14,227 bases of DNA from Acidobacteriota bacterium (GCA_049967655.1 JBMFSH010000053.1:1-14227), one strand, 5' to 3'; positions 1 to 6,000 are shown, counted from the stretch's first letter. Program-made: the numbers.

Positions 1-3000
1 CCCAGCCTCATCGAATACGAACCGTCCCCCCACCCTCCACGGGAGCGCCGGCGGCGACGGACCTCCTGCCGCGTCAGGTTTCGGCGCCCACATCCTCAGC
101 GTACAGGGAGTACGCTTGCGGTGTGGTCGCCTCACCTTCCTTACATGAGGCCCATCGGCGCCGGAACGCCGCTTTTCGCTTGCAGCGAAAAGCGAAGCCA
201 ACTGCGCAAGCGCATGCTAAAGTTGTTTCGGACAGGAATGCAAAGAGCAATGCCTGAGGGGGCCCGTCGTGCTATATTAGGCGGAATTGGACGGAGGCCG
301 GCGAGAGGGCGGCTTCCGTGCTCTCCGGCCGGGCCGGAGGTCCGTGAGGGGTCTGAATGGCGCCATGGCGCAGTTCCCTGGAACGCGGTGAGAGCGGTCT
401 TTGCCGAGAGCCGGGCCAACCCGGCGGCGCTGGAGTGCCGATCGATCATGAGTGAGGCCCCCCCTGTTCGAGCCGACCTGCACGTGCACACCCGCTACTC
501 GGGCTGGAGGCACCTGCGGTTCATTCATCCCCGCGACTGCTACAGCGAGCCCAAGGCCGTCTACGACGCCGCCCTCGCGCGGGGCATGCGCTTCGTGGCG
601 ATCACCGACCACGACGCGGTGGAGGGGGCCCTGCGTCTCCTCGACGAGCCCGGCGTGGACCCCCGGCGGGTCATCGCGGGCGAAGAGGTGGAGACCCTCT
701 TCCCCGAGACGGGGCAGTGGGTCCACGTGAACGTCCTGGGCATCACCGAGGAGGACCACCGGCGGCTTCAGGCGCTCAAGGCCGACGTCCGGGACGTGGC
801 GGCCTACTGCCGCGAGCGCGGCCTCCTGTACGTGCTGAACCATCCCTTCCAGTCCTACCTGGGTCAGAAGCCCCTGGAGGCCTACATCGAGGATCTGCTG
901 GGCCTCTTCAGCCACGTGGAGGGGCTCAACGGCGGCGTCCCCGAGCTGCAGAACAGGGCCGTCACCGAGCTCTGCCGGGCCGCCGCGGCGCGGGGCATGG
1001 AGCTGACGCAGGCGGGCGGGTCGGACGCGCACCGGCTCGGCCGGGTGGGCGCGGCGTGGACGCAGGCGCGGGCCGAAACGGCACAGGAGTTCCTGCGTGA
1101 GGTGCGGGCGGGCCGCTGCAAGGTCGGGGGGCGCACGGCGGGCACCCTCGGTCTCCTCCGGGACGTCTACGCCGTGGTGGCCACCTACTACGGGCGCCTC
1201 TATTCGGGGCGCGGGGAGGCGCCCGGCGCGGCGGCCTACGCGCTGGACGCTGGCTTCGCCACCCTGAGCCTGCCCGCGGCCCTTCTCGGGCTGCCCGCCG
1301 CCATCGTCGTGGGCAGCCAGATCCGGCAGAAGGTGGTCTCCAGGCACGTGCTCGCCCGCCTCTCCGGGTTGGACTGGCCCAGGCTCCTGGCCGCGGCCGG
1401 CGCCTGAACCGCTGGTGCCTTACTGTACCGTGGACCGAGACCGGCGAGGAGGGCGCGGAGAGGTTCCCCGAATGGTTCCCCCGAGGGTCCGGCCGGCCGA
1501 GTCCTTGAAGGCGAGAAACGAGGCGCGACGATGAAGATGCAGCTCATCTACCCGAGCTGGCCGAAGCTGGAGCGACAGACGGAGTTCCACCTGCCGCCAC
1601 ACGGCCCCGTGGTCTTCGCCGCCGAGGTGCCCGAGGAGGTGGAGCTGAGCTTCACCGACGAAAACCTCCAAGAGGTGGACTACTCCGAGGGAGCGGACAT
1701 GGTGGCCCTCAGCGTCATGCTCACGAGCCAGCTCCCGCGCGCCTTCGCCATCGCGGACCGCTTCAGGGCACAGGGTGTGCCCGTGATTTTCGGCGGCATC
1801 GCCGTCATGCTCCACCCGGAGGAGGTGGCGCTCCACGCCGACTCGGTCTTCCTGGGCGAGGTGGAGGGGCGCTTCGCGGCGGTCGTGGAGGATTTCAGGG
1901 CGGGCCGGCTGAGGCCGCTCTACGACTACATGGACGATCCGCCGGACATCGCGCTGGTGGGCACGGCGCGCCGCTCCATTCTCAAGCGCGAGCTGTACAA
2001 CTACAGAGGCACGCAGATGCTGGACCTGGTCCACGCCTCGCGGGGGTGCAAGTTCAACTGCTTCCCCTGCTGCACGGGCTACCTCGGCGGCCGGCGATTC
2101 CGGCCGCGGCCCATCGACAGGGTCATCGAGGAGATGGAGTCCATCCCCAACAACCGGATGTTCGTCGTGGACAACTCCCTGGCGCAGGACCGGGCGTGGC
2201 TCGTGGATCTCTTCACGGCCATGGCGCCGCTCAAGAAGAAGTGGGTCTCCCATCCCATCCTGGACGACGACGAGATCCTGGACCTGGCGGCCAAGGCCGG
2301 GGCCTGGTACGTTTACCAGGCGGTCTTCGACACCTCGGACTTCATCCGCAACCGGATCCGGCGGCTCAAGGAGCACGGCATCGCGGTGGAGGGGACGATC
2401 ATCCTGGGGACGGACGAGCAGGACGAGGACTTCATCAAGCAGCTCGTGGACTTCCTCCTGGAGATCAAGCTGGACGTGGCGGAGTTCACGGTGATGACGC
2501 CCTTCCCGCACTCTCCGATCCGCGCGCGGATGGAATCGGAGGGCCGGATCCTCTGCAACGACTGGCGGCTCTACACCTGCGACAAGGTCGTCTTCAGGCC
2601 CAAGCGCATGAGCCCGGAGAAGCTTCGGGAGATGTACTTCTACGCGTGGGACACCTTCTACCAGGGCAGCGGCCACGCGCTCAAGATGGCCGACCTCTTC
2701 AAGACCGTGGTCCGGCGGGAGATCGAGGACGGGACCTACGGGCGCTATAGTCCCGACGGGTGCCGCGTCTTCCCCAAGGAGAAGGCTCCGGACTGAAGGG
2801 ACGGATGCCCCAACATGAGCCATGCGAACAGGTTGCCTGGAGACACGGAGTGCAGGGAGAGAGGCTGGATGGGAGATGCAAGGGGAATTCACGGGTGAAT
2901 GGTGCAGCCCTCCGTACAGCACCTGCTTCCAGCGGGCAAGGCCCCCTGGTTGCATCCCACGAACCGTCACTTTATATATTTTCCTCTGCGGTAGGGCTGA

Positions 3001-6000
3001 TCTTTCGCTTCACCACCTACCACGTCGGGAGGTGGTTCCGTTACCGCTTTTCGGGAGTCCTTGGGGCGAAGTGAAGTCCTCCCAGGCGTGAGTCGAGTCT
3101 GTAGGGGGGGCAAAGGAGATGGCGCCATGCAGAAGGTCGTGCTCAAGCCGTTCTTCGTGGGGGAGGCGGAGCAGATTCCCCTGGGGTTGCCGCGCCGGGT
3201 CGAATCACTTTGTCCGGAGTGTCGGCGGGTTATCAGCGGTGAACTCCTCGTGCGCGACGGTCGGGTCATCATGCAGAAAAGCTGCCCGCTCCATGGCTCC
3301 TTCGAAGAGGTCGTGGCGGGCAACGCCAACGTATTCGCTCACGTAGAGCGGTACGCTGTGGATGGCTCGGCCAAGCTTCAGAATACGCCCGTAGAGAAAG
3401 TGGGCATCTGCCCTACGGACTGCGGCCTCTGCCAGGGTCATCTCTCCAGTGCCAGCATGACCATCCTCGATTTAACCAACCGGTGTAACCTACGATGCCC
3501 CTATTGCTTCGCCAATGCGAACGTACAGCCCTACGTCTACGAACCCACTCTGGAGCAGATCCGCACCATGATGGACCGGGCCCTCGCCATAAGGCCCAAG
3601 CGCATGCAGGCGATCCAGTTCTCAGGCGGCGAGCCGACGCTCTCTCCGCATTTCTTGGATGCCTGCCGGTTGGCCAAGGAACGGGGCATCAAGATGATCC
3701 AGGCGGCCACCAACGGCATCCGCTTCGCGCAGGAGCCCGGCTTTGCCCAAAAGGCCGCCGAGGCCGGACTGAACGCCGCCTATCTGCAATTTGATGGGGT
3801 GAGCGACGATATTTATGAGATCACCAGGGGTGTCAAGGGCCTCTGGCCGCTCAAGCTCCAAGCCATCGAAGCGTTTCGGCGGGCCGGCATACGGGTGACC
3901 CTCGTGCCGACCGTGATCAAAGGAGTCAACGACCACCAGGTGGGGGATATCCTCCGGTTCGCTATCCGGAATCTTGACGCGATCGTCGGGGTGGCACCGC
4001 AACCCGTGTCCTTCACGGGGCGCGTGGATGAAGCCGCCAGGGTGGCGCAACGATATACATCGAGCGATCTAGCCGTGGATATCGAACGGCAGACGGGGCT
4101 TCTAGTCGCGGAGCGGGATTTTTTCCCCTTCTCCATCACGGCACTCTTCGGTCGGATCGTGGACAACGTCCTGGGCGAGGACGCCAATGGATTCCTCCCC
4201 ATGGTGTGCAATTCCCATCCGGATTGCGGTGTCTCCGCCTACCTGCTGGTCAATCAAGACACGGGTGTGAGCGTCCCCGTGAACGAGCTCTTCGACATCG
4301 ACAGCACCCTAAGACTCATTCAGGAACTGGGGGTCAAGAGCGCCGAGCACCCCTCTCGCCTCTACTCCACGGCTCAGTTTTTCTCAATCCTCCTGAAGAC
4401 CTTCCGGCCGGAACGGGCACCCGAGGGACTGAACATCGTCCAACTGGCCAAGACGATCGACGCCATTTCCGGCAAGCGCATCATGGGTATCGCTAAAAGG
4501 AGCCGCTACCCGTGGCGGTTGCTCCTGATCGCTTCGATGCACTTCATGGATGCCTATAATTTCCAGGTGGATCGGGTTAAACGATGCACCATCCACTACT
4601 CCGCTCCCGACGGCCGCATCTACCCCTTCTGCACCTACAACTCGGGCATGGTATTTCGGACAGGCGTAGAAGAGGCCTTCAGCGTGCCCAAGGAGGAGTG
4701 GTTGAAGAGCCGGGGCGGAAGGTACGTGACGGAAGGGTTCGTGGGGGAGTAGCGGGGGACAGGGGACAAGGGACAGGAAAGGCCGACGGGCTCCTTTCGG
4801 CATCTCCTCATCACGACCAGCGTCGCCGCCTACCCCCACCCGGAATGAAGGGCCCCTAAACCGTGTTGACACCCTCCTGGCGGTATGCTAGGCTCCTCGA
4901 CTGAGTTTCAGACTCGCGGGGGGTCTTCGGGACAAGTGAAGTCAGGGGGTGCAGATGCTTCCCACTTACCTGCCCATTCTGATCATGATCGTGGTGGCCG
5001 CCGCCATGGCTGCCGGGCTCATGCTCGGTTCCTGGCTGCTGGGCAAGGTCCGGGGCTCCCGAACGGAGCTCATGCCCTATGAGTGCGGTCTGGACCCCAT
5101 GGACGAGCCCTTCAAGCGAGTGTCGGTGCGCTACTACGTCGTGGCGCTGCTCTTCCTGCTCTTCGACGTGGAGACGCTGTTCATGTTCCCGGTGGCCGCG
5201 GTCTTCCGCGACAAGATCCGCATGGGCTGGGGCCTCTTCGTCTACGGGGAGCTCCTGCTCTTCATGGCGATCCTCTTCATCGGGTACGTGTACGTTTGGA
5301 AGAAAGGGGCACTCCGATGGGAGTAAAAACCCTCGATCAGCCGGACCAGGAACTGGACCGGCAGACCCGTGAAGACCTCCAGATGGTCAAAGGCGGGGTC
5401 ATCTTCGGGTCCCTTTCCAAGCTCGTGGACATGGCCCGGAAGAACAGCCTGTGGCCCATGCCTTTCGGCCTGAGCTGCTGCGCCATCGAGATGATGGCCA
5501 TGGTGGCCAGCCGGTACGACCTGGCCCGCTTCGGCGCCGAGGCCATGCGCTTCACCCCCCGCCAGTGCGACCTCATGATCGTGGCGGGCACCCTCACCAA
5601 GAAGATGGCCTACGCGGCCAAGCGCATCTACGACCAGATGCCCGAGCCCAAGTGGGTCATTGCCATGGGCGTCTGCACTACCACGGGCGGCATGTTCAAT
5701 GCCTACTCGGTGGTGCAGGGCATCGACCACATCGTCCCCGTGGACGTCTACGTGCCCGGCTGCCCGCCCAGGCCCGAGGCGGTGATCTACGCGGTGATGA
5801 AGATCCAGGACCAGGTCATGAAAGAGAAGTGGGCCCCGCTGGGCAAGCGCTCGCACCACGGGCACTACCGCGGACGGGACCCCAAGTACGGAGCGCTTCC
5901 GCTGCTGGACACGGGCGTCAAGGTGGAGGTCAAAGGCTATCCAGAGGAGCCCGGCTCTCCCACGTGGAGGAAGGGCTACTATACCGGTTGAAGGGGCGGA

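Follow-up and report, generated by a model that had tools for sequence, protein, structure and literature searches.

A radical SAM enzyme from ketoacyl synthase clusters lies between a PHP phosphoesterase and a tetraether synthase homolog in an acidobacterium

Three genes ahead of the nuo operon

The stretch of DNA analysed here (the window, 14,227 nt) is from an Acidobacteriota bacterium. It carries three intact open reading frames on the plus strand, confirming the run that the genome-wide survey's note had placed here: a PHP-family metallophosphoesterase gene (PHP; 448..1407), a gene for a radical SAM enzyme with a B12-binding-type domain, here called Q (1531..2796), and tes (3127..4752), encoding a Tes/GDGT-MAS homolog of 541 aa. 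PHP and Q are separated by 123 nt and Q and tes by 330 nt. The nuo operon (complex I), recognised by NuoD, NuoF, NuoH and NuoA family scores, follows on the same strand (4949..14227) as a neighbour outside the proposed system; among the 18 genomes of the source family that carry tes, 7 have nuoA after it. The contig begins 447 nt ahead of PHP, and congeners have housekeeping genes upstream. The note had called the three genes an operon, a description that our results do not support. Besides the two gaps, a sigma-70-like promoter site lies ahead of tes in 9 of 18 family loci, including all five other intact Q-tes loci (frequency in shuffled sequence ≤3%). In the Q-tes spacer of the relatives the site reads TTGAGN-17/18-TA(G/A)AAT. 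It was not found in the spacer of the present genome, and a simple promoter scan of window positions 1-5100 found none.

PHP starts with ATG at 448 and has its stop at 1407, giving a protein of 319 aa. It was assigned by the Pfam PHP_C/PHP families (PHP_C score 37.3 against a cut-off of 21.3), by the motifs HVH, TDH, HVN, NHP and SDAH, and by its linkage to tes. The C-terminal segment is hydrophobic, with a Kyte-Doolittle peak of 2.0 near residue ~271. PDB sequences gave no match, and the ESM Atlas matches were nameless PHP_C clusters only.

Tes scored 484.1 against NF045702 (cut-off 450), in agreement with the note, and three other family members also exceeded the cut-off. Using phmmer, it matched 7TOL over its full length with the ligands aligned (E 1.8e-115). 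Tes keeps the rubredoxin ligands CX2CX20CX2H (C29/C32/C53/H56), the N-terminal 3Cys+His cluster (C95-C102 with H105), the radical SAM motif CX3CX2C (C120/C124/C127) and the C-terminal 3Cys+Met cluster (C367, M471, C487 and C502, with the Cys assignment taken from the 7TOL alignment). M471 and Y491 are the equivalents of Met439 and Tyr459. All four metal sites, the labile Met and the active-site Tyr are shared with archaeal Tes/GDGT-MAS (MJ0619; PDB 7TOL, 7TOM). In contrast to the archaeal enzyme, the acidobacterial one has a bacterial host, no Ger was found with it, and its neighbours are PHP and Q instead of isoprenoid-lipid genes.

tes was found in 18 of 25 family genomes (13 of 18 in the note); our counts differ from the earlier ones because our genome set is larger. 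The GC3 of the present tes, 0.774, is within the lowest 1.2% of 1254 long genes, and the spacer upstream of it (2797..3126, plus strand, 330 nt) gave no match in congeners. By these features and the Tes tree, an allele of a different family lineage has taken the place, at the same site, of tes together with this spacer (the left part of the replaced tract), and Q was left in place.

The ether-forming enzyme Ger, reported as absent, was not found in our searches either. The DUF2229 (Ger/PlsA) domain had no match in this 99.3%-complete genome and was found in one of 25 family genomes, with Thermotoga maritima as a positive control; a PlsA/Ger-like query matched only a gene for a ~260-aa activator. 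A search for other ether routes (Elb, Agps, CarF) gave only weak NAD_binding_4 matches, and PF10520 matched in no control. A search for iso-C15 supply revealed one E1-alpha/E1-beta/E2 set on contig C15, which may be PDH or BCKDH.

Identity and origin of the radical SAM enzyme

Q (421 aa) consists of an N-terminal B12-binding-type Rossmann domain and a radical SAM domain, and was assigned by PF02310, homolog alignment and cluster orthology. The PF02310 score passed narrowly (36.2 against 32.1), and the CX3CX2C cysteines C173/C177/C180 are conserved without exception in all 51 homologs aligned. An N-terminal B12 Rossmann domain combined with CX3CX2C is the mark of cobalamin-dependent radical SAM methylases, and Q has this combination (model pLDDT 88). 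Methylases are also marked by hydrophobic residues on the lower face of cobalamin (PMC12931638). Q has the hydrophobic, invariant residues M63/L64 after its third Rossmann strand, a pair not mapped to the cobalamin axial site. The solved fold closest to Q was AprD4 (Z 32.1, 372 residues, rmsd 2.6), which was also the top profile match (E 8.7e-7); the folds of MgmA (Z 26.1), CysS (Z 23.5) and TokK (Z 16.6) scored lower. AprD4 (PDB 6FD2) is a radical SAM diol dehydratase that binds no cobalamin (PMC12931638), and Q is set apart from it by 19% identity and an NF033070 score of 21.8 against 500. With a cobalamin-free dehydratase as the closest fold, the model does not indicate that methylation by Q should be favoured over other chemistry.

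None of the 11 NCBIfam matches is a Gmm, GrsA or GrsB model. Q was rejected as a TIGR04072 protein (48.3 against a cut-off of 360) and as HpnR, HpnJ, BchE or QCMT, with scores far below the cut-offs, and in the ESM Atlas it matched nameless B12 clusters only. Q resembles the methylase Gmm and the ring synthases GrsA/B in domain order and in its setting beside tetraether-modifying genes (PMC11214058, PMC13459092); unlike them, it originates from a bacterial KS cluster. The genome encodes 28 CX3CX2C proteins. Methylmalonyl-CoA mutase and cobalamin adenosyltransferase genes are present, so the organism uses cobamides.

Relatives of Q outside the family are 69-81% identical, close to the 73-81% given earlier. 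A ketoacyl synthase (KS) or CLF gene accompanied Q at 69 of the 75 non-family loci of GTDB genomes and at 65 of the 80 from metagenomes, consistent with the 71 of 79 homolog loci of the note. The note had associated these genes with FabF; they scored 260-323 against TIGR03150 (cut-off 494) and so are not FabF proper. By similarity, a TIGR04072-like gene occurs in 67 of the 75 loci, and at locus L231 a TIGR04072 member scored 645.8 against 360. The Q orthologs are placed between KS/CLF pairs, adjoining the TIGR04072 member, in clusters with DarH, DarG-family and StlD/DarB matches over cut-off. The Q proteins of the family group as a single clade (support 99) that arises from within these cluster-resident orthologs. 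Together, these results support the descent of Q from KS/CLF 'ladderane-like' or aryl-polyene-like clusters, as the note had proposed. That Q acts on an acyl chain, also proposed there, may fairly be inferred.

No KS/CLF or TIGR04072 gene lies beside Q in the window or in the five family loci L048-L052, and none of the 25 family genomes has a TIGR04072 member over cut-off. In the acidobacterial family, Q is an orphan without its KS cluster. It is under purifying selection (dN/dS 0.095-0.145) although separated from this cluster. Five relatives have TIGR04072-like genes (E under 1e-50, below the cut-off) among housekeeping genes.

Clusters of two known types hold related genes. The 'ladderane-like' FASII clusters of Kuenenia, Desulfotalea, Geobacter and Pelobacter (PMC2649909) are matched by the arrangement of Q orthologs described above, and no product has been named for them in print (PMC10139942, PMC13459092); the present Q, in contrast, stands beside tes and is itself no TIGR04072. 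Aryl polyene lipid/flexirubin clusters (10.1101/2020.12.19.423268; NCBIfam DarH, DarG, StlD/DarB, FlxA, FlxY and LolA2 models) share a set of KS, CLF, ACP, DH, KR, MMPL, GT2, acyltransferase and LolA genes with the Q-ortholog clusters, and genes of similar kinds flank PHP orthologs. Radical SAM enzymes and Tes are absent from the aryl polyene core genes named in the available part of that source. Whereas the aryl polyene (ape) core of KS, ACP, CLF, DH, KR and transporter forms one cluster, the homologs in the present genome are spread over at least five contigs (C14, C56, C34, C2 and C17). They comprise a second ACP (C56:142-402), a DH-KS-CLF module, a GT2 with an LpxL-like acyltransferase, an MMPL transporter and a LolA-like carrier, and are the best matches (roughly 25-58%) to many genes of the PHP-ortholog clusters. 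The second ACP also occurs in tes-lacking genomes (three of five in genus g6). We also rejected the idea that the genome has a complete KS cluster at another site; the two partner radical SAM enzymes have no orthologs, and only these scattered homologs were found.

Linkage of PHP, Q and tes across lineages

Of the 18 family genomes with tes, 11 have PHP immediately upstream of it, and the order PHP-Q-tes occurs in six (two of them split at contig ends and one frame-broken). The tallies of the note, 10 and 5 of 14 loci, have counterparts in the larger set. tes has neither neighbour in one of the 18 genomes, and genus g3 retains PHP-tes and lacks Q. PHP is a conserved partner of tes, and PHP-Q-tes is the arrangement of one subclade, reflecting a single insertion or a single ancestral state and not many events. 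PHP lies ≤12 kb from tes in 21 of the 38 non-family Acidobacteriota genomes for which both gene positions were listed (eight families) and ≤1 kb in 10. Only 2 of 21 genomes have a Q-family gene ≤12 kb from tes. The nearest non-family PHP orthologs, 42-47% identical, are surrounded by AMP-ligase, LpxL-like acyltransferase, ACP, GT2, DH, KS/CLF and MMPL genes, and in family f32 PHP orthologs are convergent on a Q-family gene.

tes itself recurs within ACP/KS/acyltransferase/LolA clusters, a point that the note had missed, and its likely substrate therefore changes. Three separate Tes clades are tied to ACP/KS-CLF/LpxL-like/LolA or Q-family genes: that of the source family with PHP-Q-tes; that of Deferrimicrobiaceae and G606, where an AT-tes-LolA operon lies beside or inside a KS cluster with a Q ortholog or paralog; and the long acidobacterial Tes of G255, G335, G233 and G303. 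The genes of G606 form a compact operon, AT-tes-LolA-Q-family-ACP-KS-CLF. Shared descent of family and Deferrimicrobiaceae Tes was rejected, as the two were not sisters in the Tes trees (quick and FastTree, without bootstrap). The Deferrimicrobiaceae and f32 tes-neighbourhood counts cover the listed loci, L200, L201, L409 and L418-L422 were chosen for their neighbours, and related genomes in the linkage counts are not independent. No description of tes inside KS/acyltransferase/LolA clusters was found in the literature searched; neighbourhood figures supplementary to PMC11214058 and to PMC8941075 may be relevant to this point.

The link of PHP, Q and KS-type genes to tes is a minority pattern. 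Among 20 non-family acidobacterial tes loci, taken from near the head of a score ranking, a Q-family gene was found in none, PHP in one and plsA/ger in two within ~7 kb. In a Desulfobacterota sample, 13 of 17 over-cut-off tes loci were without any of these genes. The nearest non-Acidobacteriota relatives of Tes (45-46%) are preceded by a two-component pair, and no lipid genes accompany them.

A putative envelope-lipid pathway and its alternatives

PHP, Q and tes probably help to make an unusual envelope lipid. The explanation we prefer, with about an even chance of being right, sees PHP-Q-tes as what is left, still clustered, of a specialised pathway for an envelope lipid, of the aryl-polyene-lipid/'ladderane-like' type, with its other genes scattered and Q an optional modifier. 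In its favour are the PHP-tes linkage outside the family, the genes around PHP orthologs and their scattered best matches here, the three Tes clades, the presence of tes in all 10 Q-bearing family genomes, the purifying selection on Q, the use of cobamides and the archaeal precedent of Gmm and Grs beside Gms (PMC11214058); the minority pattern, the second ACP of tes-lacking genomes and the PHP-tes of genus g3 without Q speak against it. We infer every substrate and product of this pathway, and observe gene identities, cofactor motifs, the origin of Q and linkage counts. A private ACP and KS/CLF would build an acyl chain, which the acyltransferase and GT2 would transfer to a glycolipid or phospholipid acceptor. 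PHP may remove a phosphate from an intermediate, and Tes would couple two acyl tails carbon to carbon via its C-terminal [4Fe-4S] cluster. Because Ger was not found, the product is predicted to be an ester-linked, tail-coupled lipid. The family ancestor would have gained Q once from a deltaproteobacterial-type cluster. Q would optionally modify an unactivated acyl carbon by radical chemistry, with the chain on ACP or on the lipid. Within this explanation, cobalamin-dependent C-methylation has a little under half of the weight, ring or C-C formation is distinctly less probable, and cobalamin-independent chemistry somewhat less probable again. What bacterial Tes homologs make is a question open in print (PMC11868695), as is the role of radical SAM enzymes in ladderane-like clusters (PMC10139942). 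The locus ties these two questions together and presents Q removed from its two usual partner enzymes.

A wider proposal, speculative and in our view rather unlikely, is that some bacterial Tes, including the present one, weld the tails of a dedicated glycolipid instead of bulk phospholipids. This glycolipid would be made by ACP/KS-CLF, assembled by LpxL/GT2 and exported to the outer membrane by MMPL/LolA, and Q-family enzymes would methylate or cyclise its chain. If true, this would mean an undescribed tail-coupled, ester-linked outer-membrane lipid, a product class for the 'ladderane-like' clusters and a possible source of branched diacids released by hydrolysis. The G606 operon and the G335 cluster are better test objects than PHP-Q-tes.

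A possible account, if on the unlikely side, is that Q is incidental. It would have landed once between PHP and tes, in the common ancestor of a single subclade, with a task of its own on an acyl-ACP or non-lipid substrate, and Tes would couple bulk membrane phospholipids independently. Q does lie away from tes in four genus g4 genomes, a separation in another genus already reported in the note, as it does at L248, L250 and L252 from metagenomes. No tes match was found in 43 of 50 non-family Q-bearing genomes. The promoter-like site ahead of tes and the exchange of tes and spacer past a resident Q also point this way. However, the insertion split a PHP-tes pair whose two genes each show linkage to Q-family genes in lineages beyond this one, all 10 Q-bearing family genomes carry tes, and in G429, G433, G436, G449 and G580 one contig holds both a Q ortholog and tes, 7-26 kb from each other.

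The note had instead proposed Q as a candidate methylase for iso-diabolic/brGDGT lipids, that is, a cobalamin-dependent enzyme adding the C5/C6 methyls of Tes-made iso-diabolic-acid/brGDGT-type lipids. We regard this reading as weak and improbable. It is consistent with a B12-domain radical SAM gene adjoining tes, as the B12 radical SAM genes Gmm and Grs adjoin the tetraether gene Gms in archaea (PMC11214058), and with M63/L64, for which mapping to the axial position is not established (PMC12931638). Methylated iso-diabolic tetraesters occur in an acidobacterium (PMC13274423), so the absence of Ger is not fatal to it. Against it, Q is absent from 8 of 18 tes-bearing family genomes and apart from tes in the g4 genomes. 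Among 401 Acidobacteriota genomes, those outside the family that carry tes yielded no Q ortholog (above 60%), in a sample that may not include the methylating producers known from subdivisions 1, 3, 4 and 6 (PMC13274423); 235 of the 401 have tes, and some families are tes-positive in 36 of 36 and 29 of 29 genomes. Cluster-resident orthologs are mostly in tes-less genomes, the four non-family acidobacterial ones lie in KS-type clusters in genomes without full-length tes, and the fold is nearest to that of AprD4. The literature passages searched named no enzyme for the additional methyl groups that underlie the brGDGT temperature proxy, and PHP-Q-tes alone does not identify that methylase.

It is very improbable that the Tes homolog welds no lipid tails and instead forms a different C-C or C-S bond in a cluster product, for example an intramolecular macrocycle, with Q at another step. 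In favour of this reading, the activity of bacterial Tes is unproven (PMC11868695, PMC8941075), an archaeal homolog made only traces of macrocyclic diether (PMC8941075) and, by strict criteria, Tes was found in no more than 3 of 14 acidobacteria that produce iso-diabolic acid (PMC13159169). Against it, the present Tes retains the four metal sites and the Met439 and Tyr459 equivalents and, with the three other family members, exceeds the equivalog cut-off.

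The PHP-Q-tes locus within the family

Contig C53 of the 3.14 Mb G000 genome (99.3% complete) carries three intact genes on the plus strand. PHP (448-1407) encodes a PHP phosphoesterase that shows the typical metal motifs and has a hydrophobic segment in its C-terminal part. Q (1531-2796) encodes a radical SAM protein that also has a domain of B12-binding type (PF02310 score 36.2 versus a cut-off of 32.1), and tes (3127-4752; NF045702 score 484.1 versus 450) encodes a tetraether synthase. The nuo operon lies downstream on the same strand from 4949 onward, and tes adjoins or lies inside a nuo gene run both in this family and in several further families of Acidobacteriota (L191, L193, L197, L203, L219). 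Among the 25 family genomes, tes was found in 18, with PHP immediately upstream in 11 of these. Six genomes (G000, G002, G003, G005, G006, G007) have PHP-Q-tes, a count that takes in the frame-broken G002 and also G005 and G007, whose loci are broken up by contig ends. Since the five intact PHP-Q-tes genomes (G002 excluded) share one clade of the Tes tree, the arrangement represents a single event.

We give about an even chance to PHP-Q-tes being part of a specialised envelope-lipid pathway. That the neighbourhood is incidental is possible but distinctly less probable. Tes with neither PHP nor Q alongside occurs in G019, searches with the window Q found no ortholog in eight tes-positive family genomes, four of the ten Q-bearing family genomes (genus g4) place Q among unrelated genes, and three metagenome relatives of Q (83-85%) have no tes or PHP on the same contig. 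All ten family genomes with a Q ortholog (85-97%) have tes, and a metagenome locus, L247, has Q-tes with PHP missing.

The genome-wide survey's note had read the run as one operon. This is weakened by intergenic gaps of 123 and 330 nt and by a promoter-like TTG-N-17/18-TA..AT site, obtained in at most 3% of shuffles, before tes in 9 of 18 loci. The site is present in 5/5 other intact Q-tes loci and was not found upstream of tes in G000. The G000 tes has 78.6% DNA identity to a congener versus 93% for both flanks, its dS is 0.93 versus 0.14-0.17 for Q and PHP, and no match to the spacer 2797-3145 was found in the congener comparison. With a GC3 of 0.774 it ranks among the bottom 1.2% of the 1254 long genes, and the Tes tree places the protein outside the clade of its congeners and G003; its nearest protein is P0004 (90%). 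In G000, tes and its upstream spacer (2797-4790) have thus been swapped in situ for an allele that belongs to a different lineage within the family.

Other features of the family loci were also observed. Frames are broken in PHP, Q and tes of G002 and in tes of G018 (L140, L142), likely by sequencing errors, as both are low-contig assemblies. In G001, which has no Q, tes faces a different radical SAM gene with a B12 domain (L134:2762-4027; 24% identity to Q) in convergent orientation. A tandem pair of Q-family paralogs forms a separate cluster in G003 (L348:4381-8298) and G011 (L034, L041), accompanied in G003 by a further radical SAM gene and ligase-like and PHP/amidohydrolase-like genes.

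Origin and role of Q

Q orthologs outside the family (69-81% identity) are mostly deltaproteobacterial. A ketoacyl synthase (KS) or chain-length-factor (CLF) gene is present in 69 of 75 such loci and a TIGR04072-like gene in 67; the six KS-less loci are mostly short contigs. The metagenome set gave KS or CLF in 65/80 Q loci. Family Q forms one clade (support 99) nested within the cluster-resident orthologs (FastTree), and a near relative, L249, still lies beside ACP, dehydratase (DH), KS and TIGR04072-like genes. The recruitment of Q from a ladderane-like/aryl-polyene-like KS cluster is therefore well supported, as the survey's note had proposed, although its "FabF" label fails because the cluster KS genes fall under the FabF cut-off. 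"Ladderane-like" is justified, in the sense used in PMC2649909, by the score of one TIGR04072-like member (645.8 versus a cut-off of 360); within the family, no TIGR04072 score passes the cut-off. The clusters are equally flexirubin/aryl-polyene-like, since they hold aromatic ammonia lyase, aryl-CoA ligase, ApeI/ApeP-like dehydratases, GT2, LpxL-like acyltransferase (AT), MMPL, LolA and DarG, DarH and DarB homologs.

Purifying selection acts on Q (dN/dS 0.095-0.145), and the proline before the third cysteine of its cluster motif, CKFNCFPCC, is invariant. The evidence is mostly against Q as the iso-diabolic/brGDGT methylase, a candidacy that the note raised for iso-diabolic-type lipids. No tes match was found in 43 of 50 outside Q-bearing genomes, these being part of 73. 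A search of 401 Acidobacteriota genomes gave tes matches in 235; non-family Q orthologs occur in four (G366, G352, G045, G172), all in KS-type clusters, and full-length tes was found in none of the four. Families with tes in 36/36 and 29/29 genomes gave no Q ortholog. Methylated iso-diabolic lipids are reported from subdivisions 1, 3, 4 and 6 (PMC13274423); our 401-genome sample is not matched by name to those producer strains. AprD4 (Z 32.1) is the nearest fold to the AlphaFold model of Q (pLDDT 88), with lower scores for MgmA (26.1), OxsB (24.1), TsrM (23.7), CysS (23.5) and TokK (16.6). Compared with AprD4, Q is about 14 residues shorter following barrel strand 4. AprD4 has a Rossmann-like domain but does not bind cobalamin (PMC12931638). 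A common fold proves no function, yet it means that "methylase" is no longer the default for Q. G000 uses cobamides, and archaea already provide examples of B12 radical SAM genes next to tetraether genes (PMC11214058). Overall, a specific iso-diabolic methylase is an unlikely identity for Q.

tes in lipid-type clusters elsewhere

The tes-positive exceptions among outside Q-bearing genomes reveal AT-tes-LolA clusters, which the survey had overlooked. The Deferrimicrobiaceae-type operon runs LpxL-like acyltransferase, tes, LolA, ATP-grasp, deacetylase; its AT-tes-LolA core is present in 13/13 loci read from this group, tes exceeds the cut-off in 17/61 Deferrimicrobiaceae genomes, and G429, G433, G436, G449 and G580 carry the operon and a KS cluster with a Q ortholog on the same contig. 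In L228-L233, L467, L468 and L471-L474 the operon faces, in convergent orientation, a ladderane-like/flexirubin-like cluster that holds as many as five radical SAM genes with a B12 domain, with DarB and a type III PKS close by. One genome, G606, has a compact one-strand operon (L469:28-11309) of LpxL-like AT, tes (491 versus 450), LolA, three small unknown genes, a Q-family gene, an ABC pair, ACP, KS and CLF, the best object for testing the product of a bacterial Tes.

Among the matches listed, and with unpublished genomes excluded, 38 non-family Acidobacteriota genomes have positions for both PHP and tes. In 21 of these, spread over 8 families, the two genes are no more than 12 kb apart, and in 10 no more than 1 kb. 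The closest PHP orthologs neighbour AMP-ligase, LpxL-like AT, ACP, GT2, DH, KS/CLF and MMPL genes, and in three f32 genomes a PHP ortholog lies about 200 nt or less from a Q-family gene. Tes lies within or adjoining such KS/AT/ACP clusters in G335, G233, G255 and G303. The cluster-linked Tes proteins are spread over three distinct clades and the accompanying Q-family genes over at least four subclades. A PHP-centred acidobacterial cluster recurs (L405-L417, L419, L420, L423) with AMP ligase, LpxL-like AT, ACP, GT2, DH, KS/CLF, MMPL or LolCDE/LolA, flavin halogenase-like genes, and FkbO/Hyg5 chorismatase or ammonia lyase; this gene set resembles xanthomonadin-type clusters.

These associations of tes with KS, AT, LolA, PHP or Q-family genes are recurrent but a minority state, and related genomes are not independent. 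Within about 7 kb, 20 non-family acidobacterial tes loci, taken from the upper end of the score-ranked list, had no Q-family gene, PHP in one and plsA/ger in two; the next 20 had a Q-family gene in two, both chosen for that reason. AT/LolA context was found in 4/17 over-cut-off tes loci of a Desulfobacterota sample, and the nearest Tes relatives outside Acidobacteriota lie behind a two-component pair. Earlier work has described bacterial tes homologs, which are functionally untested (PMC8941075, PMC11868695, PMC10087280, PMC13159169, 10.1101/2022.04.07.487437), and ladderane-like clusters, which are unsolved (PMC10139942). No description of tes in KS/AT/LolA clusters was found in the literature searched, supplements aside.

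A possible envelope-lipid pathway

The gene identities, intact cofactor sites, Q origin and linkages are observed; the steps of the envelope-lipid pathway are inferred, drawing on how aryl polyene lipids are assembled (10.1101/2020.12.19.423268) and how Tes works (PMC13459092). A private ACP and KS/CLF would make an acyl chain, which AT and GT2 would turn into a glycolipid; PHP would remove phosphate, Tes couple two tails, and MMPL and LolA export the product, with Q as an optional modifier of a chain carbon. G000 has scattered homologs of DH-KS-CLF (C14), GT2 and AT (C34), MMPL (C2) and a LolA-like gene (C17), and a second, PRK09184-type ACP over cut-off (C56) that is present in 19/25 family genomes and retained in tes-lacking ones. 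A non-coupling Tes is the least probable alternative: GDGT-MAS (7TOL) aligns to the window Tes along its whole length, a motif check found that the ligands of the rubredoxin site and of the N-terminal, radical SAM and C-terminal clusters are kept, and equivalents of GDGT-MAS residues Met439 and Tyr459 are present (sites as described in PMC9433317).

In agreement with the survey's note, the search for the ether-forming Ger/PlsA domain DUF2229 was empty in G000, and 1/25 family genomes has one; any Tes product in G000 is therefore more likely ester-linked. Acidobacterial iso-diabolic acid is often released solely through acid hydrolysis of unextracted lipids, which would suit a Tes welding the tails of a dedicated KS/AT-made glycolipid. 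The PHP-Q-tes locus is a useful test case.

Further arrangements of tes were seen outside the family. In two f42 genomes (L192:2533-8694, L193), tes is immediately followed by plsA/ger (BcrAD and DUF2229) and a plsR-like gene, a candidate complete ether-plus-coupling operon. Short-type and long-type tes lie about 3.5 kb apart on the same strand in f28 (L186, L187, L190), with one opposite-strand gene between. An Rrf2-family regulator upstream of PHP-tes or tes (L200, L207, L208, L209, L409) hints at Fe-S or redox control.
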